Shown here: positions 2,439-54,800 of the stretch, in pieces | Position numbering within the stretch: position 1 is the stretch's first letter | Layout: each line of letters starts with the position of its first letter | Origin: Alphaproteobacteria bacterium | GTDB lineage: Bacteria > Pseudomonadota > Alphaproteobacteria > Bin95 | Length of the DNA stretch: 64,000 bases | Direction of reading: 5' to 3' | NCBI GenBank assembly: GCA_965220855.1 | Contig: CBDCQY010000001.1 | Location: 1,384,592 to 1,448,591 of the forward strand | Translations under genes and position numbers: made by a program | Notes under the pieces: model-generated | What the model saw: the letters and a program-made list of their open reading frames with translations, nothing else | What the model was told of the DNA's origin: nothing | Databases searched by the model: none

Positions 2439-3161
2439 ATGCTGCGCTTCGACGGCTATCGGGTGCTGGTGACGGGCGGGTCGAGCGGCATCGGCAATGC
2501 CATCGCGACCGCCTTTCGCGACGCCGGGGCCGAGGTGGTCGCCACCGGCACGAAGCCTCGCGACGCCTATACCAGCGACCTGGAGGGCATCGACTTCCGC
2601 ACGGTCGATCTGGGCGAGGCCGGTCAGCGCGAGGCGCTGGCGGCCGGCCTCGACCGGCTGGACGTGCTGGTCAACAATGCCGGCATGGTGGCCTGGCGGC
2701 GCGCGGAATATGCGCCCGAGACCTTCCGCCGCGTGGTCGAGGTCAATCTCGACGCCGGCTTCCATCTGGCGGTGCTGCTGCGCGACCGGCTGGCGGCGCG
2801 GCCGGGCTCGGTCGTCAATCTCTCGTCCATGACCGCCTTCGCCGGCAGCCAGGGCAATCCCGCCTATGGCGCCAGCAAGGCGGCGATCGTGCAGTTGACC
2901 AAGACGCTGGCGGTCGCCTGGGGCGGCGAGGGCGTGCGCGTCAACGCCATCGCGCCCGGCTATGTGCACACGCAGATGACCGACCGCTTCAAGCGGAACG
3001 CCGAGGCAGACCGCGCCATCGCCGCCGGCACGCCGCTCGGCCGCTGGGGCCGGCCGGAAGACATGGCCCGCGTGGCGCTCTTCCTCGCCTCAGACCTCGC
3101 CGGCTTCGTCACCGGCCAGACCATCGCCGTCGATGGCGGCTACGGCGCCGCCCTCGGCTGA
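2439..3161 (+). CDS. SDR family NAD(P)-dependent oxidoreductase
   Basis: MLRFDGYRVLVTGGSSGIGNAIA...NNAG...YGASKAA contains the TGxxxGIG and YxxxK motifs. ATG at 2439 is preceded by GAAGGG. The longer ORF starting at 2331 is an upstream extension. Confidence 0.85.
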   Translation: MLRFDGYRVLVTGGSSGIGNAIATAFRDAGAEVVATGTKPRDAYTSDLEGIDFRTVDLGEAGQREALAAGLDRLDVLVNNAGMVAWRRAEYAPETFRRVVEVNLDAGFHLAVLLRDRLAARPGSVVNLSSMTAFAGSQGNPAYGASKAAIVQLTKTLAVAWGGEGVRVNAIAPGYVHTQMTDRFKRNAEADRAIAAGTPLGRWGRPEDMARVALFLASDLAGFVTGQTIAVDGGYGAALG

Positions 3162-3207
3162 CGGCGCGGATCTGCGGCTTGCTGGCGCGGTCACAAATGC
3201 TTTTCGT

Positions 3208-3236
3208 TTGCTTGATATTCCAGCGCCTGCTAGTAT
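3208..3236 (+). promoter_or_regulatory. putative sigma70-like promoter (TTGCTT-17 bp-TAGTAT) for autotransporter copy 1
   Basis: The -35/-10 hexamers have 17-bp spacing, and their positions and sequences are conserved upstream of copy 2 (6732-6760) despite divergence in the surrounding sequence. Confidence 0.35.
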
Positions 3237-3285
3237 TGTGAGCATATTCGACGTGACGCCGGTAGGGCTGCTTCTGGGGCAGAAA

Positions 3286-6200
3286 ATGACAACTTTACTT
3301 CACAGAGCGCCTGTGCTGCGGGGCCTGCTTTGGTCCGCGCTTCTGGCCTGCGCGCTGATCGCCAGTCCGGCCTGGTCTCAATCTACCGGGGAGTGCAATG
3401 CCGGCGGTGGCGAAGGTGGAGATGGTCACCCTAAAGCAGATCCGCAGGGGACGGTCACGAAGCTGGCGGCATCGAATAAATACCGGATTGACGTGACCTG
3501 GCCGCGAGCCGACTTTACAGAAACCAAAAGATGTGACGAGACGAACTGGCATTCTTCGGAACTGGCGGTCGGAGATGGACAGACTTGCTATGTACAGCCC
3601 GAGGAGACCCAAGAACCGATTCGAGGAACCAATGCGGGCGGAAGCCTGCGAATTGACGTTACGCGAATCAGTTCGGCTGCCGAGCGCGATTGCAGTTATT
3701 CATCCGCTGGACGATATGAGGCTAAACTGCTTGCGGAAGATGATCTTCAAATCAGAGTATATACCATTTGCGGCTTCGCCGCTGACTTCAGCAACCCCGG
3801 CGACGCTTGCGCGTCCGATGTCCGAACCTTGAGCATCGACTCCGCGCCGCGCTTCGTAGAGTCGATTCCGGACCGGACGTGGAAGCAGCAGGAGGCGATT
3901 GCGACGGTTACGCTGCCTGTGGCCAGCGGCGGCGACGCGCCGTTCACCTATGCGTTGACACCGACGCCGCCGGCGGGGCTTGTATTCGACGCCGCCGCCC
4001 GGACGATCGCCGGCGCGCCGACCGACGCGCAGGCGTCCACGACCTACACCTACAAGGCGACCGACAACGACGGCGACGCCGTGGAACTGGTCTTCCAATT
4101 GGAGGTGCTTGCGCCGCCGACCTTCGGCGCCGAGAGCGTCGGCGATCAAAGTTGGGCAAGCAACAGCGCCATCCAGCCGCTCACCCTGCCCGCAGCAACG
4201 GGCGGCCTCCTTCCGTTGACCTACACGCTGAGGCCGGCGCTGCCGGACGGCGTTTCGTTCGACCCTACGACCCGGCGGATTTCCGGCGCGCCCACGGTCG
4301 CGCAGACTACGACGACCTACACCTATACCGCCACCGACAGCGATACGCCCGCCGATATGGCGACGCTTACCTTCACCATCGCGGTGTCCGGGGAGTTGAC
4401 CTTCGGTGGCGGCAATATCGAGGATCGGACCTACAGCACGGGGCTGGAAATTGCGCCGCTGCAGCTGCCCGCAGCGGCGGGCGGCGATCCTCCGCTGGTC
4501 TATACGCTCACGCCGCCGCCGCCGGCGGGGCTTGTATTCGACGCCGCCACCCGGCGACTGTCCGGCGCGCCGTCCACGCCGCAGGTCGCGACCGCCTACA
4601 CCTACACGGTGACGGACGGCCATGGCGCCACGGCGACGCTCGGCTTCGCCATTGCCGTTGACGAGAACAGCCGCCCGAGCTTCGGCGGCGCCGTCATCGA
4701 CGACCGGACCTACAGCCAGGGGCTGGCTATTGCGACCGTGCAACTGCCCGCGGCAACAGGCGGCAACGGTCTGCTGACCTACACGCTGACAGGCGCTCTG
4801 CCGATCGGGCTGTCGTTCGACGCCGCCAGCCGGCAGATCGCTGGCGCGCCGTCGAGTCTCCAGGCGGCGACGGGCTACACCTACATGGCGACCGACCGCG
4901 ACGGCGAGAGCGTGGCGCTGAACTTCACCATTGCGGTGGAGACCGACAGCAGCCCGAGCTTCGGCGGCGTCGGCGTCCCCGACCAGAACTATGCTCGCGG
5001 CGAAGAGATCGAGCCATTACAACTGCCCGCCGCGACCGGCGGCAATGGCGTGCTTACCTATGCGCTGACGCCGGCGCCGCCGGCGGGCCTCGCCCTCGCC
5101 AGCCGGCGGCTCAGCGGCGCGCCGACCGGCGCGCAGGCCGCCGCGACTTATACTTGGCGGGCGACCGACCGCGACGGCGACACGGCCATGCTGACCTTCG
5201 CCATCGCCGTGGAGGAAACCACGGAGGAGATGCGCCGGCTGGCGTGGGACGTGCTGGCGGATATAGGTCGGGCGTCGCTGGCGAGCGCGGCGGATACGAT
5301 CCACCAGCGCCTCGACACGCCGCCGGACGCGACCATGAAGCTGGCCGGCCAAAGAGTCGAGCTGATGTCTCTTGCATCGGGAAGTTTCCAGTGGCCGAAC
5401 CGCAGGGCTGTAAGCCAGTGGCTGAACGCTGACACCCTGCTCGCCCGGAGCGCTTTCCTTTTGCCGCTTGCGAAGGGCGACGGCGCGCGGTCGGACTGGA
5501 CCTTCTGGGGCCGTGGCGATCTACGCCGCTTCGAGGGCGGGCGCCAGCGGGCGAGCCATGAAAGCTCGCTCGCCTCCGGCTGGCTCGGCCTTGACGCGCA
5601 GCTGGGCGACGGCCTGCTGGCGGGCGCGGCCCTTTCGCGCAGCCGGAGCGAGACCGACTGGCGTCTGGCGGAGGACAAGGGCGAAATCGAGACCTCTCTC
5701 AACAGCGTCTATGGCTATATGCAGAAGAAGCTGGCTGCGGGCGGGGCGCTGCACGCTGCGGTCGGCGTCGGTTACGGCGATATGGAGCATGCGCCCGCCG
5801 GCGAGGATCGGACGAGGGCGGATCTGGACATGCTGCTGGCCTTGGCGGGAGGCCGCTGGCCGGCGGCGCGGAGCGGCGGTCTGGCGCTGTCGGTCACCGG
5901 CGATGCGGGTCTGGCGCGCATGGAGACCGATGGCGACGGCGACGACAGCCCGATCGCGGGTCTCAAGGCGGAGGTTTGGCGGCTGCGCGCCGGTCTGGAG
6001 GCGGCGCATGACGGTTTGATGCTGGCGGACACCGGTTCTGGCCTCCGGCTGACGCCGCTTCTGTCGCTCGCGCTCCGGCAGGATGGCGGCGACGGACAGA
6101 CCGGAACCGGCCTGGAGGCCGGGGCGCGCTTTGCCTTCGCCGGTCCGGGATCGCGCCTCGGCTTGGACGTGCATGGCCATTGGCTGGCGCTGCATTCCGA

Positions 6201-6606
6201 AAGCAGCCGCCGTGAGTGGGGCGCTGGTCTGCAAGCGACCTTGAGGCCGGATGTTGGCGGCCGGGGCCTCTCGCTCTCGCTCGGCCCGCGCTGGGGCGCG
6301 CCGGGTGGAAGCATGGACGCGTTGCGGAGCGACGACGCCTTCTCCGGGAGCGCTGCGCCGACGGACCGGGCTTCTCTGGCCGCCGGCGTCGCCTGGGGCA
6401 TGGGCGTGGCCGATGGCGGACTGCTGTCGCCCTTCATGGAACTGGACCTGGCCGGGGGCGAGGACGGCCGTCGGCGCTACAGCGCCGGAGCGGAACTGGG
6501 CCTGGCCGAGCAGCGGGTCCGGGCCCGACTGGCGGCCGAATGGATCGACGACAGCGCGGAAGGCAACGAAACCGGCATCGGCGTTCGCTTGCGTCTGCGC
6601 TTCTGA
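3286..6606 (+). CDS. type Va autotransporter adhesin, copy 1: Sec signal, Cys-rich tip domain, ~8 putative-Ig (He_PIG/cadherin-like) repeats, C-terminal beta-barrel translocator
   Basis: ATG at 3286 gives MTTLLHRAPVLRGLLWSALLACALIASPAWSQ as signal peptide. Repeats have the pattern LPxAxGGxxPLTYTL...GLxFDxxTRxxSGAPT...TYTYTATD. The C-terminus shows WTFWGRGDLRRFEG and alternating beta-strand patterning and ends ...GVRLRLRF, the aromatic terminus of an autotransporter barrel. Confidence 0.85.
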   Translation: MTTLLHRAPVLRGLLWSALLACALIASPAWSQSTGECNAGGGEGGDGHPKADPQGTVTKLAASNKYRIDVTWPRADFTETKRCDETNWHSSELAVGDGQTCYVQPEETQEPIRGTNAGGSLRIDVTRISSAAERDCSYSSAGRYEAKLLAEDDLQIRVYTICGFAADFSNPGDACASDVRTLSIDSAPRFVESIPDRTWKQQEAIATVTLPVASGGDAPFTYALTPTPPAGLVFDAAARTIAGAPTDAQASTTYTYKATDNDGDAVELVFQLEVLAPPTFGAESVGDQSWASNSAIQPLTLPAATGGLLPLTYTLRPALPDGVSFDPTTRRISGAPTVAQTTTTYTYTATDSDTPADMATLTFTIAVSGELTFGGGNIEDRTYSTGLEIAPLQLPAAAGGDPPLVYTLTPPPPAGLVFDAATRRLSGAPSTPQVATAYTYTVTDGHGATATLGFAIAVDENSRPSFGGAVIDDRTYSQGLAIATVQLPAATGGNGLLTYTLTGALPIGLSFDAASRQIAGAPSSLQAATGYTYMATDRDGESVALNFTIAVETDSSPSFGGVGVPDQNYARGEEIEPLQLPAATGGNGVLTYALTPAPPAGLALASRRLSGAPTGAQAAATYTWRATDRDGDTAMLTFAIAVEETTEEMRRLAWDVLADIGRASLASAADTIHQRLDTPPDATMKLAGQRVELMSLASGSFQWPNRRAVSQWLNADTLLARSAFLLPLAKGDGARSDWTFWGRGDLRRFEGGRQRASHESSLASGWLGLDAQLGDGLLAGAALSRSRSETDWRLAEDKGEIETSLNSVYGYMQKKLAAGGALHAAVGVGYGDMEHAPAGEDRTRADLDMLLALAGGRWPAARSGGLALSVTGDAGLARMETDGDGDDSPIAGLKAEVWRLRAGLEAAHDGLMLADTGSGLRLTPLLSLALRQDGGDGQTGTGLEAGARFAFAGPGSRLGLDVHGHWLALHSESSRREWGAGLQATLRPDVGGRGLSLSLGPRWGAPGGSMDALRSDDAFSGSAAPTDRASLAAGVAWGMGVADGGLLSPFMELDLAGGEDGRRRYSAGAELGLAEQRVRARLAAEWIDDSAEGNETGIGVRLRLRF

Positions 6607-6708
6607 GCTACGCCTCCCGGATTGCGCGCTGAATGGGGACGGCCGCCGGAACGGTCGATGAGGTCGCCAACGCCCTTCAGAGGCCCGTGCAGCGCCTCGG
6701 GCGAGCTG
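6607..6708 (-). pseudogene. remnant of the 3' region of the coxL-like gene, a duplication scar (last 23 bp plus an internal ~60-bp block)
   Basis: Positions 6607-6629 match 10687-10709 (the coxL stop region). Positions 6642-6701 match coxL 11141-11200, which encodes LPEALRGPLEGVGDITDRSGG. About 420 bp between the two blocks is deleted. Antisense ORF 6477..6740 translates to ...SPEALHGPLKGVGDLIDRSGG. Confidence 0.7.
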
Positions 6709-6731
6709 ACGCGGTCACAAATACTTGCCAT

Positions 6732-6760
6732 TTGCTTCACATTCTGACGCCTTCTAGTAA
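6732..6760 (+). promoter_or_regulatory. putative sigma70-like promoter (TTGCTT-17 bp-TAGTAA) for autotransporter copy 2
   Basis: Same architecture as upstream of copy 1. Confidence 0.35.
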
Positions 6761-6810
6761 GATAAATGCCTTCGACTTGACGTCGGCGGCGATGCTTCCG
6801 GGAGCATAGA

Positions 6811-9800
6811 ATGACAACTTTGCTTGACAGAGCGCCTGTGCTGTGGGGCCTGCTTTGGCCAGCGCTGGTGGCCTGCGCGCTGATCGCCAGCCCGGCCTGG
6901 TCGCAGTCCCAGCAGTGCGAGTCTGGCGGTGAAGGTTCATCTCATCACCCTAAAGCAGAACCGAAGGGGACGATCACGAAGCTGGCGGCGGCTAACGAAT
7001 ACCGGATTGAGGTGGCTTGGCCGCTCGCCAGATTTACGGAAGACGGCAGCGTCTGCTCCAGCACGACCTGGCATTATCCGTTTCTGTCAGACGCGGGCTC
7101 ACGAAGTTGCCAAATCGACCCCGTTAGCGACCACGCCATTGATGGAGACAATTCAGGCGGGAGTCTGCAAGTCGATGTCACACGGATCGACTCGGGTAAC
7201 CCGAGTTGCGACTATATAAGCACAGGGCGATACAGGGCCAGCCTGCGCGAGGAAGATAGTCTAGGTATCAACATATATACCATATGCAGCCTTAGCGCAA
7301 ATACCTTTAGAAACAGATTCGATGCTTGCGAGTCCGATTTTGTGACCCTTAGTCTTGCTTCCGCGCCGCGCTTCGAAGAGACGATCTCCGACCGGACCTG
7401 GGAGCAGTATGCGGCGATTGAGACGGTGACGCTGCCTGTGGCCAGCGGCGGCGAAGCGGCGCTCGTCTATACGCTGACCCCGGCGCTGCCGGCAGGACTT
7501 TCGTTCGACGCCGACGCCCGGACGATCGCCGGCGCGCCGACCGACGCGCAGGCGTCCACGACCTACACCTACAAGGCGACCGACAATGACGGCAATGCCG
7601 CATTGCTTACCTTCCAGCTGGAGGTGGTGACGCCGCCGCTGACCTTCGGCGGCGAGAGCATCGACGATCAGACCTGGCCCATCGGCCGCGCCATCCAGCC
7701 GCTCACCCTGCCCGCAGCGGCGGGTGGCCTCCTGCCGTTGACCTACACGCTGAGGCCGGCGCTGCCGGACGGCGTTTCGTTCGACCCTTCGACCCGGCGG
7801 ATCTCCGGCGCGCCCACGGTCGCGCAGACTGCGACGACCTACACCTATACCGCCACCGACAGCGATACGCCCGCCGATATGGCGACGCTTACCTTCACCA
7901 TCGCGGTGTCCGGGGAGCTGACCTTCGGTGGCGGCAATATCGAGGATCGGACCTACAGCACGGGGCTGGAAATTGCGCCGCTGCAGCTGCCCGCAGCGGC
8001 GGGTGGCGATCCTCCGCTGGTCTATACGCTCACGCCGCCGCCGCCGGCGGGGCTTGTATTCGACGCCGCCACCCGGCGACTGTCCGGCGCGCCGTCCACG
8101 CCGCAGGTCGCGACCGCCTACACCTACACGGTGACGGACGGCCATGGCGACACGGCGACGCTTGGCTTCGCCATTGCCGTTGACGCGAACAGCCGCCCGA
8201 GCTTCGGCGGCGCCGTCATCGACGACCGGACCTACAACCAGGGGCTGACTATTGCGACCGTGCAACTGCCCGTTGCAACAGGCGGCAACGGTCCGTTGAC
8301 CTACACGCTGAGGCCGGCGCTGCCGGACGGCGTTTCGTTCGACCCTTTGACCCGGCGGATTTCCGGCGCGCCCACAGTCGCGCAGACTACGACGACCTAC
8401 ACCTATACCGCCACCGACAGCGATACGCCCGCCGCTGTGGCGACGCTTACCTTCACCATCTTGGTGTCCGGGGAGCTGACCTTCGATGGCGGCAATATCG
8501 AGGATCGGACCTACAGCACGGGGCTGGAAATTGCGCCGCTGCAGCTGCCCGCAGCGGCGGGTGGCGATCCTCCGCTGGTCTATACGCTCACGCCGCCGCC
8601 GCCGGCGGGGCTTGTATTCGACGCCGCCACCCGGCGACTGTCCGGCGCGCCGTCCACGCCGCAGGTCGCGACCGCCTACACCTACACGGTGACGGACGGC
8701 CATGGCGCCACGGCGACGCTCGGCTTCGCCATTGCCGTTGACGCGAACAGCCGCCCGAGCTTCGGCGGCGCCGTCATCGACGACCGGACCTACAGCCAGG
8801 GGCTGGCTATTGCGACCGTGCAACTGCCCGCGGCAACAGGCGGCAACGGTCCGCTGACCTACACGCTGACAGGCGCTCTGCCGACCGGGCTGTCGTTCGA
8901 CGCCGCCAGCCGGCAGATCGCTGGCGCGCCGTCGAGTCTCCAGGCGGCGACGGGCTACACCTACATGGCGACCGACCGCGACGGCGAGAGCGTGGCGCTG
9001 AACTTCACCATTGCGGTGGAGACCGACAGCAGCCCGAGCTTCGGCGGCGTCGGCGTCCCCGACCAGAACTATGCTCGCGGCGAAGAGATCGAGCCATTAC
9101 AACTGCCCGCCGCGACCGGCGGCAATGGCGCGCTTACCTATGCGCTGACGCCGGCGCCGCCGGCGGGCCTCGCCCTCTCCAGCCGATGGCTCAGCGGCGC
9201 GCCGACCGGCGCGCAGGCCGCCGCGACTTATACTTGGCGGGCGACCGACCGCGACGGCGACACGGCCATGCTGACCTTCGCCATCGCCGTGGAGGAAACC
9301 ACGGAGGAGATGCGCCGGCTGGCGTGGGACGTGCTGGCGGATATAGGTCGGGCGTCGCTGGCGAGCGCGGCGGATACGATCCACCAGCGCCTCGACACGC
9401 CGCCGGACGCGACCATGAAGCTGGCCGGCCAAAAAGTCGAGCTGATGTCTTTTGCATCGGGAAGTTTCCAGTGGCCGAACCGCAGGGCTGTAAGCCAGTG
9501 GCTGAACGCTGACACCCTGCTCGCCCGGAGCGCTTTCCTTTTGCCGCTTGCGAAGGGCGGCGGCTCGCGGTCGGACTGGACCTTCTGGGGCCGTGGCGAT
9601 CTACGCCGCTTCGAGGGCGGGCGCCAGCGGGCGAGCCATGAAAGCTCGCTCGCCTCCGGCTGGCTCGGCCTTGACGCGCAGCTGGGCGACGGCCTGCTGG
9701 CGGGCGCGGCCCTTTCGCGCAGTTGGAGCGAGACCGACTGGCGTCTGGCGGAGGACAAGGGCGAAATCGAGACCTCTCTCAACAGCGTCTATGGCTATAT

Positions 9801-10686
9801 GCAGAAGAAGCTGGCTGCGGGCGGGGCGCTGCACGCTGCGGTCGGCGTCGGTTACGGCGATATGGAGCATGCGCCCGCCGGCGAGGATCGGACGAGGGCG
9901 GATCTGGACATGCTGCTGGCCTTGGCGGGAGGCCGCTGGCCGGCGGCGCGGAGCGGCGGTCTGGCGCTGTCGGTCACCGGCGATGCGGGTCTGGCGCGCA
10001 TGGAGACCGATGGCGACGGCGACGACAGCCCGATCGCGGGTCTCAAGGCGGAGGTTTGGCGGCTGCGCGCCGGTCTGGAGGCGGCGCATGACGGTCTGAT
10101 GCTGGCGGACACCGGTTCTGGCCTCCGGCTGACGCCGCTTCTTTCGCTCGCGCTCCGGCAGGATGGCGGCGACGGACAGACCGGAACCGGCCTGGAGGCC
10201 GGGGCGCGCTTTGCCTTCGCCGGTCCGGGATCGCGCCTCGGCTTGGACGTGCATGGCCATTGGCTGGCGCTGCATTCCGAAAGCAGCCGCCGTGAGTGGG
10301 GCGCTGGTCTGCAAGCGACCTTGAGGCCGGATGTTGGCGGCCGGGGCCTCTCGCTCTCGCTCGGCCCGCGCTGGGGCGCGCCGGGCGGAAGCATGGGCGC
10401 GTTGCGGAGCGACGACGCCTTCTCCGGGAGCGCTGCGCCGACGGACCGGGCTTCTCTGGCCGCCGGCGTCGCCTGGGGCATGGGCGTGGCCGATGGCGGA
10501 CTGCTGTCGCCCTTCATGGAACTGGACCTGGCCGGGGGCGAGGACGGCCGTCGGCGCTACAGCGCCGGAGCGGAACTGGGCCTGGCCGAGCAGCGGGTCC
10601 GGGCCCGACTGGCGGCCGAATGGATCGACGACAGCGCGGAAGGCAACGAAACCGGCATCGGCGTTCGCTTGCGTCTGCGCTTCTGA
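6811..10686 (+). CDS. type Va autotransporter adhesin, copy 2 (paralog of 3286..6606 with ~10 putative-Ig repeats)
   Basis: Signal peptide MTTLLDRAPVLWGLLWPALVACALIASPAWSQ. The 3' ~1.4 kb is ~99% identical to copy 1. The N-terminal ~170 aa are divergent but have 6 positionally conserved Cys. Ends ...GVRLRLRF. Confidence 0.85.
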   Translation: MTTLLDRAPVLWGLLWPALVACALIASPAWSQSQQCESGGEGSSHHPKAEPKGTITKLAAANEYRIEVAWPLARFTEDGSVCSSTTWHYPFLSDAGSRSCQIDPVSDHAIDGDNSGGSLQVDVTRIDSGNPSCDYISTGRYRASLREEDSLGINIYTICSLSANTFRNRFDACESDFVTLSLASAPRFEETISDRTWEQYAAIETVTLPVASGGEAALVYTLTPALPAGLSFDADARTIAGAPTDAQASTTYTYKATDNDGNAALLTFQLEVVTPPLTFGGESIDDQTWPIGRAIQPLTLPAAAGGLLPLTYTLRPALPDGVSFDPSTRRISGAPTVAQTATTYTYTATDSDTPADMATLTFTIAVSGELTFGGGNIEDRTYSTGLEIAPLQLPAAAGGDPPLVYTLTPPPPAGLVFDAATRRLSGAPSTPQVATAYTYTVTDGHGDTATLGFAIAVDANSRPSFGGAVIDDRTYNQGLTIATVQLPVATGGNGPLTYTLRPALPDGVSFDPLTRRISGAPTVAQTTTTYTYTATDSDTPAAVATLTFTILVSGELTFDGGNIEDRTYSTGLEIAPLQLPAAAGGDPPLVYTLTPPPPAGLVFDAATRRLSGAPSTPQVATAYTYTVTDGHGATATLGFAIAVDANSRPSFGGAVIDDRTYSQGLAIATVQLPAATGGNGPLTYTLTGALPTGLSFDAASRQIAGAPSSLQAATGYTYMATDRDGESVALNFTIAVETDSSPSFGGVGVPDQNYARGEEIEPLQLPAATGGNGALTYALTPAPPAGLALSSRWLSGAPTGAQAAATYTWRATDRDGDTAMLTFAIAVEETTEEMRRLAWDVLADIGRASLASAADTIHQRLDTPPDATMKLAGQKVELMSFASGSFQWPNRRAVSQWLNADTLLARSAFLLPLAKGGGSRSDWTFWGRGDLRRFEGGRQRASHESSLASGWLGLDAQLGDGLLAGAALSRSWSETDWRLAEDKGEIETSLNSVYGYMQKKLAAGGALHAAVGVGYGDMEHAPAGEDRTRADLDMLLALAGGRWPAARSGGLALSVTGDAGLARMETDGDGDDSPIAGLKAEVWRLRAGLEAAHDGLMLADTGSGLRLTPLLSLALRQDGGDGQTGTGLEAGARFAFAGPGSRLGLDVHGHWLALHSESSRREWGAGLQATLRPDVGGRGLSLSLGPRWGAPGGSMGALRSDDAFSGSAAPTDRASLAAGVAWGMGVADGGLLSPFMELDLAGGEDGRRRYSAGAELGLAEQRVRARLAAEWIDDSAEGNETGIGVRLRLRF
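7921..9036 (+). repeat. internal 558-bp tandem duplication (two He_PIG repeat pairs) inside autotransporter copy 2
   Basis: The string accttcgg/atggcggcaatatcgaggatcggacctacagcacggggctggaaattgcgccg recurs at 7921 and 8479. Identical antisense ORFs at 7928..8134 and 8486..8692 are 558 bp apart. This accounts for copy 2 being 555 bp longer than copy 1. Confidence 0.8.
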
Positions 10687-10687
10687 G

Positions 10688-13036
10688 CTACGCCTCCCGG
10701 ATTGCGCGCCAGATGCGTTCGGGGGTGGCGGGCATTTCGATGTGGCGGACGCCGAGGTCGGCCAGGGCGTGGCATAGGGCGTTCACGACCAGGCCGAGGG
10801 CGGGGGTCGTGCCGCCCTCGCCGCCGGGGCGGACGCCGTGCGGGTGCGAGCTTGCCGGCGTTTCTCCGAGCAGCGTCCTGAGCGGCGGCAGGTCGTCGGC
10901 GCGCGGCATGGCGTAGTCCATGAAGGAGCCGGTCAGCAGCTGGCCGTCCTCTGGCCGGTAGCAGACCGCCTCCAGCAGCGCCTGGCCCGCCCCCTGCGCG
11001 ATGGCGCCCTGCGCCTGGCCGTGCAGGATGAGCGGGTTGACCGCGAGGCCCACATCGTCGATCCCGGTCCAGGCGACGATGCGCGCCCGCCCGGTCTCGG
11101 GATCGACTTCCACCTCGCAGACATGCGCGCCATAAGGATAGCCGCCGGAACGGTCGGTGATGTCGCCGACGCCCTCCAGCGGCCCGCGCAGCGCCTCGGG
11201 CAGGCTCGCGCCCTCCGCCGCCCCGGCCAGCTGCTCCAGGCGGATGCTGGCCCCGCCGCCGGCGTGGAAGGCGCCCTCGCGCCAGCGAAGCTCCTCCGGC
11301 CGGGCCTGCAGCAGATGCGCCGCCATGGCCCGGCCGCGCGCGAGCAGCGCCGCCACCGCCTGTTCGATGGCGATGCTGGCGAGGCGCATCGATCGCCCGG
11401 AATGCGAGCCGCCGCCGACGGTTATCCGATCGGTGTCGTTGGCGACATAACGGATGCGCTCGAAGGCGACGCCCAGCCAGTCGCCCGCCAGCTGCGGAAA
11501 GCTGGTCTCATGGCCCTGGCCGCTGCTCATCGTGCCGACCGCAAGCTCGATCTCGCCCGAGGCGAGCGCCCGGAGTTCGGCCCGCTCGCGGGGGATGCCG
11601 CTGGTCACCTCGATATAGTTGGCGACCGCGATGCCCCGCCGGAGCCCGCGCCGGGCCGCCTCCGCCCGGCGCGCCTCGAAGCCGGTCCAGTCGGCCGCCG
11701 CGAGCGCCCGGTCCATGGCGGCGGGATAGTCGCCGCTGTCATAGGTGACGCCGACGGCGTTGGTAAACGGCATGGCGTCCGGGCGGATCAGGTTGCGCCG
11801 GCGCAGCTCCGCCCGGTCGCAGCCGAGCCGCCCGGCGGCGAGTTCGATCAGCCGCTCGATCGTGTAGATCGCTTCCGGGCGCCCGGCGCTGCGATAGACG
11901 GCCGTCGGCGCGGTGTTGGTCAGCACCGCATGGCCGCGAAAGTGGACGGCGGGGATGCGGTAGCTGCCCTGCATCATCGAAAGGCCCTTGCGCAGCGGCC
12001 AGAAATAGACCGCATAGGCGCCGAGATTGAGCGTGTTGACGCCCCGGAGCGCGAGGAAGTTGCCGTCTGCGTCCAGCGCCAGTTCCGCTTGCGAGAACAG
12101 GTCGCGGGCCTGATAGTCGGAGAGGAAGCATTCGCGCCGGTCGGCGACCCACTTCACCGGGCGCCCCGTGCGCCGGGCCGCCCAGGGCATGAGCGCGAAT
12201 TCCGGCGAGAAGGCGTTGCGCGTGCCGAAATTGCCGCCCATGTCGCCGAAGACCGCGCGGCACGTCTCCAGAGGCGCGCCGAGCACGGCCGCAAGCCGCT
12301 CGCGCGTCTGCACCGCGCCGCGCCCGGAGGCCGCCCGCAGCGTGTAGCGCTCCGTCGCCGAGTCATACTCGCCGATGACGGCGCGCGGCTCCATCGGCGC
12401 GCCGTTGACGCGCTGGACATGGCTCTCGAACGAGACGGTGTGCGCGGCGCGCGCAAAGGCCGCCGCCACCGCCTGCGCATCGCCGACCTCGGCGGTGAGC
12501 GCCAGATTGTCGGCGCGGTCCGGCCAGAGGCGGGGCGCGTCGGCCGCCAGCGCCGCCCGCGCCTCCGTCACCGCCGGCAGCGGCTCATACTCGACCGCGA
12601 CCAGCTCCGCCGCTTCGGCGGCCAGTGCGGCGGTCTCCGCGACGACCAGCGCCACCGCCTCGCCGCAATAGCGCGCCCGGTCCGCCGGCAGCGGCAGGTT
12701 GGGCGTGTCGGCGACCTCGAAGCCGGGCGGCAGGCGAAGCTCCGCGTCCGGCGGGCCGGTCCAGTCCGGCTTGTGCGGGATCGGCTGCAAGCCGTCCGCT
12801 GCGGCGTCGGCCCCGGTCAGCACCGCCAGCACGCCCGGCAGGGCGGCCGCGCGGGCGCCGTCGATGGCGCGGATGCGGGCATGGGCGTGGGGCGAGCGCA
12901 CCATGGCGGCGTGGGCCAGGCGCTTGGGCGCGACGTCATCGACATAGCGCCCGCGCCCGGTCAGCAGCCGCCGGTCCTCCGTCCTTCGGCGCGGCTTGCC
13001 GATCTCGCCGCCGCCGGCTCCGCTTGCCCCCGTCAT
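10688..13036 (-). CDS. xanthine dehydrogenase / aldehyde oxidase / CO-dehydrogenase family molybdopterin-binding large subunit (CoxL-like)
   Basis: 782 aa with IGKPRRRTEDRRLLTGRGRYVDDV at the N-terminus and typical MoCo-binding domains. I prefer the ATG at 13036 because GGGGAGAAG lies 7 nt upstream. The stop is 1 nt from the stop of autotransporter copy 2 (convergent). Confidence 0.85.
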   Translation of the reverse strand: MTGASGAGGGEIGKPRRRTEDRRLLTGRGRYVDDVAPKRLAHAAMVRSPHAHARIRAIDGARAAALPGVLAVLTGADAAADGLQPIPHKPDWTGPPDAELRLPPGFEVADTPNLPLPADRARYCGEAVALVVAETAALAAEAAELVAVEYEPLPAVTEARAALAADAPRLWPDRADNLALTAEVGDAQAVAAAFARAAHTVSFESHVQRVNGAPMEPRAVIGEYDSATERYTLRAASGRGAVQTRERLAAVLGAPLETCRAVFGDMGGNFGTRNAFSPEFALMPWAARRTGRPVKWVADRRECFLSDYQARDLFSQAELALDADGNFLALRGVNTLNLGAYAVYFWPLRKGLSMMQGSYRIPAVHFRGHAVLTNTAPTAVYRSAGRPEAIYTIERLIELAAGRLGCDRAELRRRNLIRPDAMPFTNAVGVTYDSGDYPAAMDRALAAADWTGFEARRAEAARRGLRRGIAVANYIEVTSGIPRERAELRALASGEIELAVGTMSSGQGHETSFPQLAGDWLGVAFERIRYVANDTDRITVGGGSHSGRSMRLASIAIEQAVAALLARGRAMAAHLLQARPEELRWREGAFHAGGGASIRLEQLAGAAEGASLPEALRGPLEGVGDITDRSGGYPYGAHVCEVEVDPETGRARIVAWTGIDDVGLAVNPLILHGQAQGAIAQGAGQALLEAVCYRPEDGQLLTGSFMDYAMPRADDLPPLRTLLGETPASSHPHGVRPGGEGGTTPALGLVVNALCHALADLGVRHIEMPATPERIWRAIREA

Positions 13037-47628: not shown

Positions 47629-48559
47629 AGCCGGGCATGACCTCCGTCGCGAAGCGCTCCAGGGTCGCGAGCGCCCGATCGACGCCCGGCTCGTGGATCA
47701 GTCCCGGAATCGTGTACCAGGGATTGAGCACGATATGGCCGAGGCCGATGGCGCGCGCCGCATCGAGATTGCGGCGGATTCGGTCGCGGGAGCCGATCAG
47801 GGAGAAGGCGTCGCCGAGGAAGGGCGTCGGGTCGAGGTCGAAGGCGAGCGGCGTGTGCAGCGAGCGCGCGATGCCGGCCGGGTCGCGCCCGGCGTCGGCC
47901 GCCATGGCGTCGAGCGTCTTCTGCCGGCGGGCCAGATCGTCAAGCGTCCATTGCACCGAGCCCGGCCGGCGCGCCGAGGTGATCGGATGCCAGCCGTCGC
48001 CGTAGCGCACGACGCGTTCGAGCGCGCGCTCATTGTTGCCGCCGATCCAGATGGGCGGCTTGCGGGCCGGGCGCGGCTCGAAGGCGAAATCCTCGAAGCG
48101 GTAGAACTCGCCCTCGAAGTCGTTGGGGCCGGGGGACCAGAGCCGGTCGAGAATGCGCAGCATCTCGTCGGCGCGCGCGCCGCGCCGGGCGAAGGGAATG
48201 TCGAGGATGTCGTATTCCTCGCGGATCCAGCCGAAGGCGACGCCGAAAATGGCGCGCCCGCCGGAGAGGTCGTCGATGCTGGCCATCTCCTTGGCGAGCG
48301 TGACCGGGTGGCGATAGGGCAGCACGATCACCGTGGTGCCGAGCCGCACCCGGCGGGTGAGGCCGGCGAGCAGGCCGAGCGTGCTGAACAGGCCATAGAC
48401 GCGCTCCGAGAAGCGCTCGACGAAGGGGCGCGGGACGATCACATGGTCGATCGCCCAGATGGAGTCGAAACCCGCCTCCTCCGCCATCCGCGCCATCCGC
48501 TCCAGGCTCTCCCGCGAGGCGAAAGCGCCATGCTGCGGCATCACCACTCCGAACTTCAT
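47618..48559 (-). CDS. LLM-class (luciferase-like) flavin/F420-dependent oxidoreductase
   Basis: MKFGVVMPQH...IWAIDHV... TIM-barrel LLM pattern. Overlaps the prpD-like start by 11 bp. Confidence 0.8.
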   Translation of the reverse strand: MKFGVVMPQHGAFASRESLERMARMAEEAGFDSIWAIDHVIVPRPFVERFSERVYGLFSTLGLLAGLTRRVRLGTTVIVLPYRHPVTLAKEMASIDDLSGGRAIFGVAFGWIREEYDILDIPFARRGARADEMLRILDRLWSPGPNDFEGEFYRFEDFAFEPRPARKPPIWIGGNNERALERVVRYGDGWHPITSARRPGSVQWTLDDLARRQKTLDAMAADAGRDPAGIARSLHTPLAFDLDPTPFLGDAFSLIGSRDRIRRNLDAARAIGLGHIVLNPWYTIPGLIHEPGVDRALATLERFATEVMPGYGD

Positions 48560-48650
48560 GTCGCTTCCTCCCTCCGATTCGGACCCGCCGCGCCGATAGT
48601 GCGCCCGGTTGCCTGTCCCGCGCGATCACGGCGCCAGACGGCTCGCCAGC

Positions 48651-49220
48651 CTAGACCAAATGCAACTCTTCCCGCTCCAGCCTCAACATAACCCTCTCGT
48701 CCGGAGTAACCCGTCGCTCCATGTCTCGAAGCAACTTCGACAGGCAACGGGTAAGAAATGTCTCCCAATCTCCCCTGTTCCTGAACTCAATTCCCGATTT
48801 TTCTGCAACACTGACCAGAACCGCTTTCTTCGATTCTTGGACCAGCCGCAGAATATTCAGCACCGTTCCCGGACTCCTGCCGTCCCAGATCATCAGCCCG
48901 AAATCAGCCTGCCGCGCCATTTCACGGTCCTTGGCGGCGTAAAACTGAAAATTTCTTTCACGCTCCTCTGTATCGACGCTGTGAGTTGGCCATTGACCGA
49001 TATTATTGCGGCTTGCACCACCCGAGCAGTAAACGATCACCTTGTCGTAATTTGCTTTGGCCAGGTGTTGTTGCGCCGCCTTATCTGCTCCGTTCGCATC
49101 CCCGACGAGGATTACGAATCCCCGATTCACGACATTGTCGATCCGCGCCTTCGCCTCCATCGGCAGACATGCGATCCGCCGGGAACCCCCGACAAATATC
49201 GCGCTCACCATCTGCTCCAT
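48651..49220 (-). CDS. standalone SLOG-superfamily (DprA/Smf-like Rossmann) domain protein in a low-GC islet
   Basis: IFVGGSRRI...VILVGDANGADKAAQQHLAKANYDKVIVYCSGG matches the DprA/SLOG pattern (VGSRx...SGxAxGxDxxAHxxAL...TIaV). The gene is ~52-55% GC against ~70% in its flanks, and its GC3 is far below host genes. Confidence 0.5.
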   Translation of the reverse strand: MEQMVSAIFVGGSRRIACLPMEAKARIDNVVNRGFVILVGDANGADKAAQQHLAKANYDKVIVYCSGGASRNNIGQWPTHSVDTEERERNFQFYAAKDREMARQADFGLMIWDGRSPGTVLNILRLVQESKKAVLVSVAEKSGIEFRNRGDWETFLTRCLSKLLRDMERRVTPDERVMLRLEREELHLV

Positions 49221-49375
49221 ATTCTCGCTATCGCCAACACGCGGACACCTTCAGCTTATCCTTTCGTCATAAGCGAACTCGCAACGGTGCGCATCGTCTT
49301 GTCCTCCCCCTTGTCGATCCGTCGCTGTCTGCGACAAGAGGAAGCAGACGGCCGGCGGGGCGGGGGAGTCAAGCG

Positions 49376-50047
49376 TCAGGGCTTGATGACGTGCTCCTTC
49401 GTCACCACGAAGGCGAGGCGGGGCTCGTCGATGAAGTTGGCTTCGTCGGCGCGGGTGCGGGCGTAGGCCTCGGAGGCGGCCGATGCGCGCATGGCGTCGG
49501 TGTCGTCGAACCAGGCGATCGCCAGGCCGTCGAGCGCCGGGGCCTTGCCGCCGCGATAGGCGCCGGGGCGCAGATGGTTCTGCTCATAGCGGCGGATCTG
49601 CCCGATGCGCGCGGCGAGCGGCCCGTGGGTCTCGCGCCAGTAGCGCTGGAAGTCGTCGACCGCCATGCCCGGCTTGCGCGCCACCAGCTCGATATTCTTC
49701 ACCCCGTCCGCCGGGCGGGGGCCGTCCACGATCACATGCTCCTCCACCAGCAGCGTCGTCATGGTGCTGCGGTCGATGAAGCGCGCCTCGTCCTCGCAGA
49801 GCGCGGCGAATTCCGGCAGCGCGGCGTTGCGGCGAAGCGTGTCCATATCCTCCCACCAGGTCTCCGCCACGCCGTCGCAGGCGAGCTCGCCCCGGGCGTA
49901 GCCGCCCATCAGCGGATGGTTCTGGCGGTAGCCGACCAGGCCCGGCATCCGCAGCACGGCCTTCGGGTGCTCCTCCAGCCAGTAGGACCGGAAGGCGTCG
50001 AGCGCCATGCCCGGCTTGCGCCGGAAGACGATGGCGGCCTTGATCAT
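49376..50047 (-). CDS. tandem EthD-domain protein
   Basis: Two ~100-aa EthD-like halves: MIKAAIVFRRKPGMALDAFRSYW... and ...NIELVARKPGMAVDDFQRYW... Confidence 0.7.
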   Translation of the reverse strand: MIKAAIVFRRKPGMALDAFRSYWLEEHPKAVLRMPGLVGYRQNHPLMGGYARGELACDGVAETWWEDMDTLRRNAALPEFAALCEDEARFIDRSTMTTLLVEEHVIVDGPRPADGVKNIELVARKPGMAVDDFQRYWRETHGPLAARIGQIRRYEQNHLRPGAYRGGKAPALDGLAIAWFDDTDAMRASAASEAYARTRADEANFIDEPRLAFVVTKEHVIKP

Positions 50048-51885: not shown

Positions 51886-54800
51886 TCAGAAGTTGAAGCG
51901 AAAGTTGAAGTGGAGGCGGCGGTTGTCAGCGGAGCCGCCGCGGTTCTCATGGCCGGCGATCAGTTCCAGATCGATATGGCGGGCGGCGGCCTGGAAGGCG
52001 AGGCCGGCCTCCAGTTTGCTCCGGTCGCCCGTCTCCTCCGAGAGGCGCAGCAGGGGTGACAGCAGGCCGGATGAGGCCGGCAGCTGGAAGCCGTAGCGGG
52101 CCTCCAGTTCCAGCAGGGTTGCATCGTTGCTTCCGAAGCTGGCTTCGTCATAGTCGAGATCGTCCGCCAGCATCGCGGACCTGTCCGCGCGCGGACCGGT
52201 CGTCAGGCGCACCGACCAGGAGAGGCCGCGCCCGCGGGCGCCCGGCGCCAGCCGCGCCTCTAGGCTCGCGCCCCATTCGCGCACGCCACGCCCGGAATGC
52301 GCCGCCAGCCAGCGGCCGCTCGCATCCAGGCTGAAGCGCGAGCCGGGGTCCGTGAGGCGCCCGCCGACCGAAACCTCGACGCCGGAGCCCGTCACCCCGT
52401 CGCCGCCGTCCTGGCGCAGCGTCAGTGCGCCGTGCGGCGCCAGCGTCAGTTCGGAGCTGGAGAACACAAATCCGTCATGTTCGGCTTCCACGCCGACGCC
52501 GAGGCGCCAACTCGCCGCCTTCAGCCCGCCGATCGAGGTCGCTCGGGAGCCGTCGGTCTCGATTTGCGCCAGGCCCAACTCGCCGGTTGCAGAGAGAGCG
52601 AAGCGGTCGTGCTGCGCTACGGGCATGCGCCCGCCGGCCGACAAGGCTAGCAATTCGAGGTCGGCCCGCTCCACCGCTCCTTCTCTCGGGCGATGCTCCA
52701 TCTCGCCCTGCCCGGCTCCGAGCACCAGGCGCAACCGGCCGCCGCCTTCCGTCGTCATCTGCAGATAGGGCCAGACCGCGGTCACCGAGGTCTCGACGCT
52801 GCCGCTGTCCTCGTCGATGCGGTAGTCGGTCTCGCCGTCGCTCATCGAGAGTCCGAGGCCGGCCAGCAGCCGTTCGTCCAGCCGCGCGTCCAGCCCCAGC
52901 CAGCCGGCCCGCTGCTCCCCTTCATAGCGCCCCGTCTCCGCCGGGCCCTCGAACTGCCGCCAGTCGCCCCGGCCCCAGACCGTCCAGGCCGCGCCGCTGT
53001 CCGCAGTTTCGTCCGACGCAGCCAGCGGCAGCGTGAAGGCGCTGCCGCCCAACAGGGTCTCGGCGCTCACCGCGTCATGCCGCCCGGCCGCCCCGCCCGG
53101 GGTTCGCACGATCCGGTTGCCCGTTTCGGAAGCGGCGAGTTGGCGCGCGTCGCCTACCCGGCGCCCGGCAAGCGACAGCGCCGGCGCGCCCGGCGTCGCA
53201 TCGAACCGCAAGCGGATCGCATCCGTCGCGCTCGACAAGGCGGTCCGCGCGATCCTGGCGAGCATCGCCTTCAGCACTTGCCGCTCGACCTCCGGCGGGG
53301 CGTCCTCGATCTCGTTGGTCACCGTCACCGTCACCGACCGGTCCGCCATATTGCCGTCGGCGTCGGTCGCGGTCAGCGTGTAGGCGTAGCCATTGTCCGC
53401 GTCGCTGTCGTCCGGCTTCTCGAAGTCCCGCCCGGCCAGCGTCACCGTGACGCCGCTGTTGCTCGCGCCCGAGAGCGCGAACAGGTCCGCATCGGCGCCC
53501 GAGAGCGACCAGGCGACGGCGCCGATCGGCGCATCGCCCGTCAACACCGCCGCGCCGGCATAGTCGGCGTTCTCCGCCACGCTGGCGTTGGCCACGCCGC
53601 CGAGAGCCAGCGCCGCCGCCTCGATGACATCCGTCACCGTCACCGTCACCGCAAGGCTCGTGATGTTGTCGTCATCGTCGGTCGCGGTCAGCGTGTAGGC
53701 GTAGCCATTGTCCGCGTCGCTGTCGCCCGGGTTCTCATAGTTGCGCGCGGCCATCGACACCGTAACGCCGCTGTTGCTCCCGCCCGAAAGCGCGAACAGG
53801 CCGGCGTCCGCCCCCGAGAGCGACCAGGCGACGGCGCCGATCGGCGCATCGCCCGTGAGCGTCGCCATTCCGCTGTAGCCGGCGTTCTCCGCCACGCTGG
53901 CGTCGCCCACCCCCGCGATGGCCAGAGCCGCAGTCTCGTCCGCGTCCGTCACCGCGATCGTCACCGAGGCGTTCGTGGTGTTGCTGTCGTCGTCGGTCGC
54001 AGTCAGCGTGTAGGCGTAGCTGTTGCCGCCGTCGGCGTCGCTCGGGTTCTCGAAGTCCTTCGGGGTCATCGACACCGTGACGCCGCCATTGCTCGCGCCC
54101 GAGAGCGTGAACAGGTCCGCGTCGGCGCCCGAAAGCGACCAGGAGACCGCGCCGATCGGCCCGCCCGTGAGCGTCGCCGTTCGGCTATAGGCCGCGCCCT
54201 CCGCCACGCTGGCGTCAGCCACCCCCGCCAAGGTCAGCGTCGCGGTCTCGATCGCGTCCGTCACCGTGACGGTCACCGTCCGGCTCACCGTGTTTTCGTC
54301 ATCGTCGGTGGCGGTCAGCGTGTAGATATAGCTGTTGTCGGCGTCGGCGTCGGTCGGGTTTTCGAAGTCGCGCACCGTCAGCGTCACCGTGACCCCGCTG
54401 TTGCTCTCGTCCGAGAGTTCGAACAGCTCTCCGTCATCGCCGTCGAGCTTCCAGGCGACGGAGCCGATCGGCGCCTCGCCCGCCATCACCGCCGCGCCGC
54501 TATAGACGGCGTTCTCCGCCACACTGGCGTCGGCCACGCCCGCCACCGCGAGCGCAGCGACCTCTTTCGCGTCCGTGACCGTCACCGTGAAGACATCCGA
54601 GGTCACCGTGTCGCCGTCGCGATCCGTCGCCTTCAGCGTGTATTCGTAACGGTTGTCCCCGTCGCTGTCGGCGGGGTTCTCGAAGTCCTGCTCCGCCAGC
54701 GTCACGGTCGCCTCGGTGGCGCTCTCGCCCGACAGCGCGAACTTCCCGGCGTCGGCTCCGCCAAGCTCCCAGTTCACCGGCGCGTCGGCCCCGGCCAGCG

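Follow-up and report, generated by a model that had tools for sequence, protein, structure and literature searches.

We have analysed a 64-kb window (the whole stretch of 64,000 nucleotides from contig CBDCQY010000001.1) of the genome of an uncultured alphaproteobacterium with about 71% GC. The window contains two open reading frames (ORFs) lying in tandem on the same strand, hereafter gene A (3286..6606, + strand, 1106 amino acids) and gene B (6811..10686, + strand, 1291 amino acids). The mechanical ORF of A opens at 3133, within an upstream gene of the short-chain dehydrogenase/reductase type, and its start was placed at 3286 because this position is homologous to the first ATG of B. The same 1291- and 925-amino-acid products (the latter read from an internal start of A, see below) are present in two separate assemblies, so the pair is not an assembly artefact. 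The locus could be dissected into the following parts, with lengths in nucleotides (nt):

3186..3285, + strand: upstream region of A, with the 13-mer CGCGGTCACAAAT at 3186-3198 and the hexamers TTGATA-16-TATTGT at 3212-3239; 72% identical to 6710-6810
3286..3378, + strand: signal peptide of A, MTTLLHRAPVLRGLLWSALLACALIASPAWS then QS, assigned by inspection; 90.3% identical to that of B in nt
3379..3840, + strand: tip of A (residues 32-185), with the most divergent and lowest-GC core at about 3472-3810
3841..5229, + strand: stalk of A, five He_PIG repeats of 91-94 amino acids each, delimited by Pfam, repeat dissection and an identity matrix
5230..6606, + strand: linker and PF03797 beta-domain of A, including the stop codon; 34.2 bits; 99.3% identical to B in nt
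6607..6629, + strand: 23-nt relic of the 3' flank of B, forming the right edge of the duplicated unit; blastn match to 6629/10709
6630..6709, + strand: duplication junction, weakly similar to 3140-3185 (57.8% identity)
6710..6810, + strand: upstream region of B, with the 13-mer at 6710-6722 and the hexamers TTCACA-16-TAAGAT at 6736-6763
6811..6903, + strand: signal peptide of B, assigned from the translation and the alignment to A
6904..7359, + strand: tip of B (residues 32-183), the six-cysteine domain, 100% identical in the second-strain protein P0001
7360..9309, + strand: stalk of B, seven He_PIG repeats according to Pfam, with 186 extra residues at about 7930-8487
9310..10686, + strand: linker and PF03797 beta-domain of B, including the stop codon; 31.5 bits

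The two products share the same order of parts, namely a signal peptide, an N-terminal domain of about 155 amino acids with six cysteines (the tip), He_PIG repeats, a linker and a PF03797 barrel. Both carry the tandem PF05345 arrangement that characterises He_PIG repeat proteins, with five repeats counted by Pfam in A (E = 1.2e-38) and seven in B (E = 1.2e-55). The last 458 residues matched PF03797 (Autotransporter beta-domain) with 34.2 bits in A and 31.5 bits in B, the gathering cut-off being 26 bits, and all five related barrels matched the same family (best E = 8.1e-14). A relative of the barrel in the PDB could not be found by sequence. The C-terminus (...RLRLRF) is a typical outer-membrane protein ending with a terminal aromatic residue. 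Inspection of the translation revealed a Sec signal peptide and, after it, an N-terminal passenger, which, together with the C-terminal PF03797 barrel, corresponds to the type Va layout; the usual beta-helical passenger of this type is replaced by the five or seven He_PIG repeats. The reverse layout of type Ve, with an N-terminal barrel and a C-terminal passenger, is not that of A and B, whose barrels are C-terminal. The ORFs and the Pfam matches agreed with the preliminary description of this DNA, which had read the locus as two adjacent paralogs with a signal peptide and a He_PIG stalk at these coordinates, and A and B were confirmed as tandem paralogous type Va (classical) autotransporters, as predicted from their domains.

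The signal peptides, of about 31 residues, showed on inspection a basic n-region, a hydrophobic core and the sequence PAWS-QS in A, B and a third copy, gene C (protein P0010). Gene C is found in a Rhodobacterales metagenome-assembled genome (CBDCSI01, L001 10001-12496), the only other genome with the six-cysteine tip. A lipobox-like motif is also present at Cys22 of the signal peptides (LLAC in A, 3340-3354; LVAC in B, 6865-6879). The motif of B is an exact fit to [LVI][ASTVI][GAS]C, and gene C has Phe at this position. Hence, A and B could be lipoproteins instead of signal peptidase I substrates.

We have then compared A and B along their length. Identity rose steeply from the N- to the C-terminal parts, as did the similarity of their synonymous sites (dS, synonymous divergence):

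tip: 51% identity in amino acids, 63% in nt; dS 0.82
repeat 1: 76% in amino acids; dS 0.28
repeat 2: 88% in amino acids; dS 0.10
repeats 3-5: 97-99% in amino acids; dS 0-0.03
linker and barrel (last 458 codons): 98.7% in amino acids, 99.3% in nt; dS 0.011

The values for the last 458 codons bear out the earlier estimate of a 1.4-kb translocator with about 99% identity, and over the 3' 2199 nt only 18 mismatches were found (99.18% identity). The proposed contrast between a homogenised body and a divergent tip thus held at its two ends, with 51% amino acid identity in the tip and 99.3% nucleotide identity in the translocator, but a sharp split did not hold. Instead, there is a gradient in which repeats 1 and 2 are mosaic, exact tracts of 54-86 nt lying amid divergent patches. 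Within the tip, the strongly divergent core spans about 340 nt (codons 63-175) and has a dS of 0.90 (bootstrap confidence interval 0.55-1.46), about three times that of either flank, the flanks having similar values of 0.29 and 0.36. The ratio of nonsynonymous to synonymous divergence (dN/dS) was about the same in the core (0.53) as in the flanks (0.47-0.56).

The stalks also differ in length, B carrying an insertion of 186 residues after residue 373 that comprises two internal repeats. Repeat B4 is chimeric: its N-part derives from repeat 4 and its C-part from repeat 2, the two meeting at a shared LTYTL motif. Repeat B5, in turn, duplicates repeat 3. This dissection showed that unequal crossing-over within the repeat array altered the stalk length (five vs. 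seven repeats).

The availability of a second strain allowed a four-way comparison of A and B of the window strain with the second-strain proteins P0124 (A', from the internal start) and P0001 (B'). Two positions (A-residues 1056 and 1087) separate the strains but not the paralogs: they are alanine and isoleucine, respectively, in the window strain and valine and threonine in the second strain, in each case in both copies. Six older differences between A and B, located between residues 496 and 787, are common to both strains, and beyond residue 787 no fixed difference between A and B is left in the two strains. The strains differ at 4 and 8 positions over about 925 residues, and we estimated the probability of two coincident positions by chance to be below 1e-3. 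The dS varied about 80-fold along the gene (0.82 to 0.01). Hence, the pair displays both signs of concerted evolution, paralog-shared strain-specific changes (for the second strain at the protein level only) and heterogeneous dS. Given the two concerted sites and the 80-fold dS range, conversion would have been recurrent, anchored at the 3' end and continued after the strains split. Altogether, these data supported the earlier proposal that gene conversion keeps the stalk and barrel homogeneous: as seen at the protein level, it homogenises the barrel and the proximal repeats to about 99% identity. The gradient further showed where this process ends, conversion fading through repeats 2 and 1 and stopping short of the tip core.

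The origin of the pair could be read from its edges. The block formed by the upstream region and the signal peptide (3186-3378 vs. 6710-6903) is 81% identical, with 72% identity in the 100 nt upstream and about 90% in the signal-peptide coding region. In both genes the exact 13-mer CGCGGTCACAAAT lies about 25 nt 5' of a -35-like hexamer and is a candidate regulator site. Sigma-70-like -35/-10 hexamers occur at equivalent positions of A and B, as found by a hexamer scan that scored consensus match only. The promoter architecture said to be shared was therefore recovered, as the 13-mer plus hexamers at matching positions (3212-3239 and 6736-6763), again as a consensus match only. Neither the 13-mer nor the A/B promoter block is present upstream of gene C. 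On the other side, the 23 nt after the stop codon are identical in A and B, and at B these 23 nt are the 3' end (...AIREA*) of a convergent molybdopterin dehydrogenase gene. Since the flank of A repeats the gene end of B's neighbour, the pair arose by tandem duplication in place and not by two insertions. These edges showed a duplicated unit of about 3.5 kb, from about 3186 to 6629, which takes in the promoter region at one end and 23 nt of the next gene at the other. The seven neighbouring products that were scanned are metabolic or transport proteins, and their comparison with protein-family libraries revealed no recombinase, invertase, reverse transcriptase or mobile-element protein among them.

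Regarding the tip, 82 of 161 alignment columns are identical between A and B over mature residues ~32-185 (51%). The six cysteines of the two tips, spaced 13 to 46 residues apart, occupy the same columns and are invariant in gene C too; the only other cysteine is that of the signal peptide. Both parts of the earlier observation, a tip only about half identical and six cysteines in matching positions, were reproduced and extend to gene C. The alignment of the three genes likewise agreed with a distal N-terminal domain with six conserved cysteines, the distal position following from the type Va topology.

We have searched extensively for relatives of this domain. When 1.84 billion representative proteins were searched exhaustively with a hidden Markov model (HMM) of both tips, only B's own cluster and P0010 were returned; a third match, P0121, was discarded as a spurious hit to a cysteine-containing repeat. 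A word-indexed homologue search with tip A gave no match, as expected from the omission of tip A in the public gene calls. No relatives of the tips were found in Pfam, NCBIfam or the PDB, and a single weak PKD match (E = 0.0046, one member) was not used as evidence. Scanning the GTDB species genomes for the tip recovered only the genome with gene C. The JGI metagenomes scanned with tip peptides gave nothing, and the same collection scanned with the invariant GGSLxVDVTRI motif gave 19 matches, none encoding a tip, with about 20 expected by chance according to our estimate. A plasmid megablast was also negative. These DNA-level scans partly offset gene-call losses, reaching close relatives only. 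Two AlphaFold runs on the tip ended with low confidence (predicted local distance difference test scores of 49.5 and 41). By these searches, the six-cysteine tip is an orphan domain at the level of sequence.

A three-way comparison gave 53-55% identity for each of the tip pairs A-B, A-C and B-C. The informative amino acid sites in the tip split 18/22/18, and those of repeat 1 split 20/5/7, favouring the grouping of A with B. The equal three-way identities mean that the tips of A and B are as far apart in protein sequence as each is from the copy of another species. At the nucleotide level, tip sites grouping A with B were slightly in excess (78 vs. 59 and 61). In a runs test for mosaicism among the three tips, P was 0.08 at the amino acid level and 0.006 at the nucleotide level; since nucleotide sites are non-independent within codons, the latter value is no more than suggestive. 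The comparisons showed the tips to be old, stable types, with 100% identity of tip B in the two strains, against 3 residue differences in their barrels.

Gene C has the same design as A and B with only two He_PIG repeats, and its context is different, as it sits between secE and nusG. These normally form a tight conserved pair; here, gene C is flanked by about 570 nt of non-coding DNA on each side (L001 9425-13064), the upstream flank being GC-poor (0.52). A sister family of autotransporters (P0015, P0028 and P0035) has tips of a two-cysteine type unrelated to the six-cysteine tip, and hhalign detected no homology between the two types. One of its members, the He_PIG autotransporter P0035, lies in a tandem array between two autotransporters with fn3 stalks (L025 1-6873), of which the downstream one has an N-terminal region with a GC content of 0.39-0.44. 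Tandem arrays and low-GC tips seem to be common in this bacterial group.

Several of these tips are lost in public annotations. In both public assemblies, A is called from an internal TTG located exactly where tip and stalk meet, so that the annotated gene (3829-6606; P0123 and P0124) encodes 925 instead of 1106 amino acids. The sister-family gene of P0015 (L004 5374-6000) was called 209 codons short, losing the signal peptide and the tip, and P0012, P0013 and P0017 were called without signal peptide, the calls for the first two opening directly with the first He_PIG repeat and that for P0017 within this repeat. Atypical composition leads gene callers to cut tips, and the scarcity of tips in protein databases would therefore be partly an artefact. 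More generally, the loss of low-GC tips by gene callers would leave distal, ligand-facing domains under-represented in protein databases.

The low GC content attributed to the tip was readily seen. In 200-nt windows it dropped to 0.52-0.60 over 3100-3900 and 6600-7450, compared with about 0.70 elsewhere, and the GC content at third codon positions (GC3) was 0.545 in tip A and 0.579 in tip B, below the 0.84 of the remaining parts of A and B and the 0.88-0.91 of their neighbours. As GC1 and GC2 of the tips fall much less than GC3, the dip is synonymous in nature. With 450-nt windows, four places of the 64 kb fell below 0.62, two of them being the tips. Similar dips were found in other proteins: the tip of gene C has a GC3 of 0.75 vs. 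0.84, the first 150 codons of a giant third autotransporter of the window have a GC3 of 0.66 vs. 0.80-0.85, and the GC content of the sister-family tips is 0.42-0.51 (P0015), 0.52-0.57 (P0028) and 0.46-0.51 (P0035). Because low-GC N-terminal domains recur, also among unrelated tip types, the dip alone is no proof of recent transfer.

The giant autotransporter-like ORF (51886-63960, - strand, 4024 amino acids) has about 30 near-identical repeats of ~105 amino acids without a convincing Pfam family, about five further repeats of ~100 amino acids, and a PF03797 barrel that shares 42% identity with the A and B barrels. It starts 40 nt from the window end with a weak signal-peptide-like N-terminus, and its true start is uncertain. 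The fourth low-GC island (48377-49500, minimum 0.529) lies amid GC-rich metabolic genes and holds an ORF of 189 amino acids (48651-49220, - strand) without a Pfam match; this island may be a small foreign insertion.

Taken together, the data pointed, with a probability of roughly 70%, to mosaic concerted evolution of A and B, with specialised tips of a probable adhesin and no switch. According to this reading, tandem duplication would have produced two independently expressed type Va autotransporters, subject to recurrent conversion anchored at the 3' end. The tip would be an all-beta domain of about 155 amino acids and six cysteines that caps the He_PIG rod at the point farthest from the cell, so that a distal binding module stapled by disulfides would be displayed on the cell in two versions, each at its own height. 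Such an arrangement would represent functional specialisation of a probable adhesin rather than switching. Some points weigh against this reading. The adhesin or binding role was inferred from architecture alone. Conversion after the strain split is based on just two amino acid sites, seen at the protein level. Cysteines 13 to 46 residues apart are at odds with what is normal for type V passengers and raise the question of how the tip crosses the outer membrane. In addition, a core dS about three times that of both similar flanks (0.29 and 0.36) would fit an imported tip allele after a younger duplication, the dS values having been obtained by the Nei-Gojobori method (NG86), which is rough at such divergences with unequal GC3.

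The last point requires an explanation of the tip island itself, for which we have weighed two accounts. The one that we tentatively favour, at somewhat less than even odds, combines a local rate effect with relaxed synonymous constraint. Here, the low GC3 and the approximately threefold dS of the tip would be a family-wide property of distal domains in such autotransporters, possibly caused by weaker recombination and GC-biased repair and by relaxed synonymous constraint, the region having diverged too far for recombination. Between species, dS is 1.4-1.6 in the tip vs. 0.55 in the barrel (2.5-2.9x), similar to the ratio of core to flank within the pair (0.9 vs. 0.3). The other account, which we consider doubtful and which corresponds to the horizontal swap suggested earlier, is the replacement of a module: the duplication would be relatively young (dS about 0.3, the level of the promoter, the signal peptide and repeat 1), and one tip core would subsequently have been exchanged, by homologous recombination in the conserved signal-peptide and He_PIG flanks, for a much older allele of another lineage. 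This would agree with a core dS of 0.90 (0.55-1.46) between alike flanks of 0.29 and 0.36, with a tip GC3 of 0.55-0.58 against about 0.9 in the genome, and with the equidistance of tips A, B and C in protein sequence. It would also find precedents in the mobility of the whole gene on a longer timescale (gene C being located elsewhere, between secE and nusG) and in the unrelated tip types carried by homologous stalks and barrels. However, the 1.84 billion representative proteins, the GTDB species genomes and the JGI metagenomes contained no donor or further relative, and the low GC3 is the same in both tips. Moreover, the 2.5-2.9x ratio between species means that a faster local synonymous rate suffices, exact matches in the 5' flank reach no more than 13-22 nt and make a poor recombination substrate, and nucleotide sites grouping A with B are slightly in excess (78 vs. 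59 and 61).

The suggestion that the tip is diversifying, if understood as positive selection by ligand, antibody or phage on an exposed surface, did not fare well and we regard it as improbable. It is true that no segment is more divergent than the tip, which is also distal, and that dN between A and B (0.43) equals dN(A-C) and dN(B-C) although dS(A-B) is lower, with a tip dN/dS of 0.53 within the pair vs. 0.26-0.31 between species, as would fit an acceleration after duplication. Nevertheless, dN/dS is below 1 and the same in core and flanks (0.53 vs. 0.47-0.56), tip B is the same in the two strains despite 3 residue differences in their barrels, and the between-species dS is inflated by the GC3 difference; three sequences are also too few for site-level tests. 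Still far less probable is a switchable cassette system, or antigenic variation, in which tips would move between an expression site and silent copies. The long direct-repeat homology would permit recombination between A and B, but this would delete one tip rather than switch it. The adhesin-variant cassette system proposed earlier also conflicted with the presence of promoter-like sites, a ribosome-binding context and signal peptides in both genes, and tblastn found no further tip copy in the 64-kb window. None of the seven neighbouring products scanned is a recombinase, invertase or reverse transcriptase, and visual inspection of the 5' ends, without a repeat finder, showed no simple-sequence tract. 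Known mechanisms of variation were discarded on similar grounds: silent cassettes of the pilE/pilS, msp2 or vls type, as both copies are complete and no other tip copy exists in the window; a diversity-generating retroelement, as neither tip has a second copy in the 64 kb and no reverse transcriptase was found among the seven flanking products; and an invertible promoter or phase variation, whose parts were not found at the locus (hexamer scan, scanned neighbours, 5' ends by eye).

Mosaic concerted evolution with specialised tips thus appears as the best reading, and the keeping of two variants of a probable adhesin in this way would be clear and fairly ordinary for bacteria. The gene pair offers a clean natural example of this mode of evolution, with three divergence tiers and two-strain evidence of conversion, and the combination of a C-terminal barrel, an Ig-like stalk and a cysteine-rich cap makes it a test case for the type V secretion of disulfide-bonded passengers that are not beta-helical. 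The practical impact is modest, the organism being uncultured. A bolder view, which we judge unlikely, is that the low-GC caps constitute a population-wide pool of interchangeable receptor-binding modules under balancing selection, with the six-cysteine cap as a new fold and its export as an exception to the rule of few and close cysteines. If true, these modules would sit on an uncharacterised class of type Va proteins with Ig or fn3 stalks, the mirror image of intimin; the balancing selection could come, for example, from phage, grazers or host surfaces; and the export of the cap would need either oxidation only after export or the passage of a disulfide-bonded domain.

In evolutionary logic, the closest parallel that we have found is the bab system, with a homogenised anchor and divergent heads as in A and B. 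The head of BabA has disulfide loops. There is no homology between the Bab proteins, which are members of the Hop family, and A and B with their PF03797 barrels and He_PIG stalks. In addition, the bab genes lie at dispersed loci, with phase variation of babB via CT repeats, whereas A and B are in tandem and no phase-variable repeat was seen by eye. The Helicobacter pylori outer-membrane adhesin paralogs babA, babB and babC share a conserved N-terminal region and, with more than 90% identity, a C-terminal membrane region; binding resides in a variable, type-specific middle, and gene conversion between loci yields chimeras (PMC4552749). Chimeras of A and B were not observed.

The deep divergence of surface variants has another counterpart in Pseudomonas aeruginosa, in which the pilin, flagellin, O-antigen and pyoverdine regions are surface loci of high divergence and low GC that are subject to balancing or diversifying selection. 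Like the tips of A and B, these variants are deeply diverged and have low GC and atypical codon use in a GC-rich genome. The P. aeruginosa types are alleles at one locus in the population, in contrast to A and B, where two types are adjacent in one genome.

In physical design, A and B resemble the inverse autotransporters (type Ve: intimin, invasin), which also combine a stalk with a disulfide-containing cap. Intimin has an Ig-like rod capped by a lectin-like distal domain (PMC6555100), and the disulfide bridge of its cap needs DsbA (PMC8151025). The topology is mirrored, as A and B have a C-terminal PF03797 barrel and an N-terminal cap, and the Ig domains are He_PIG in A and B and BID/Big_1 in type Ve. 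No similarity of the A/B cap to C-type lectins was detectable. With the classical type Va proteins (pertactin, EstA, NalP), A and B share the signal peptide, the N-terminal passenger, the PF03797 barrel and the terminal aromatic residue. The passenger of this type is usually a beta-helix, although other folds occur (PMC6555100), and the Ig-like repeats of A and B depart from this usual form. As a rule, the cysteines of type V passengers are few and close together (PMC8151025), unlike those of A and B, where six widely spaced cysteines lie in the part of the passenger exported last. Our literature search found no papers on He_PIG autotransporters. Set against these systems, A and B are a real and well-defined feature: classical autotransporters with an Ig stalk and an orphan six-cysteine cap that escaped homogenisation.

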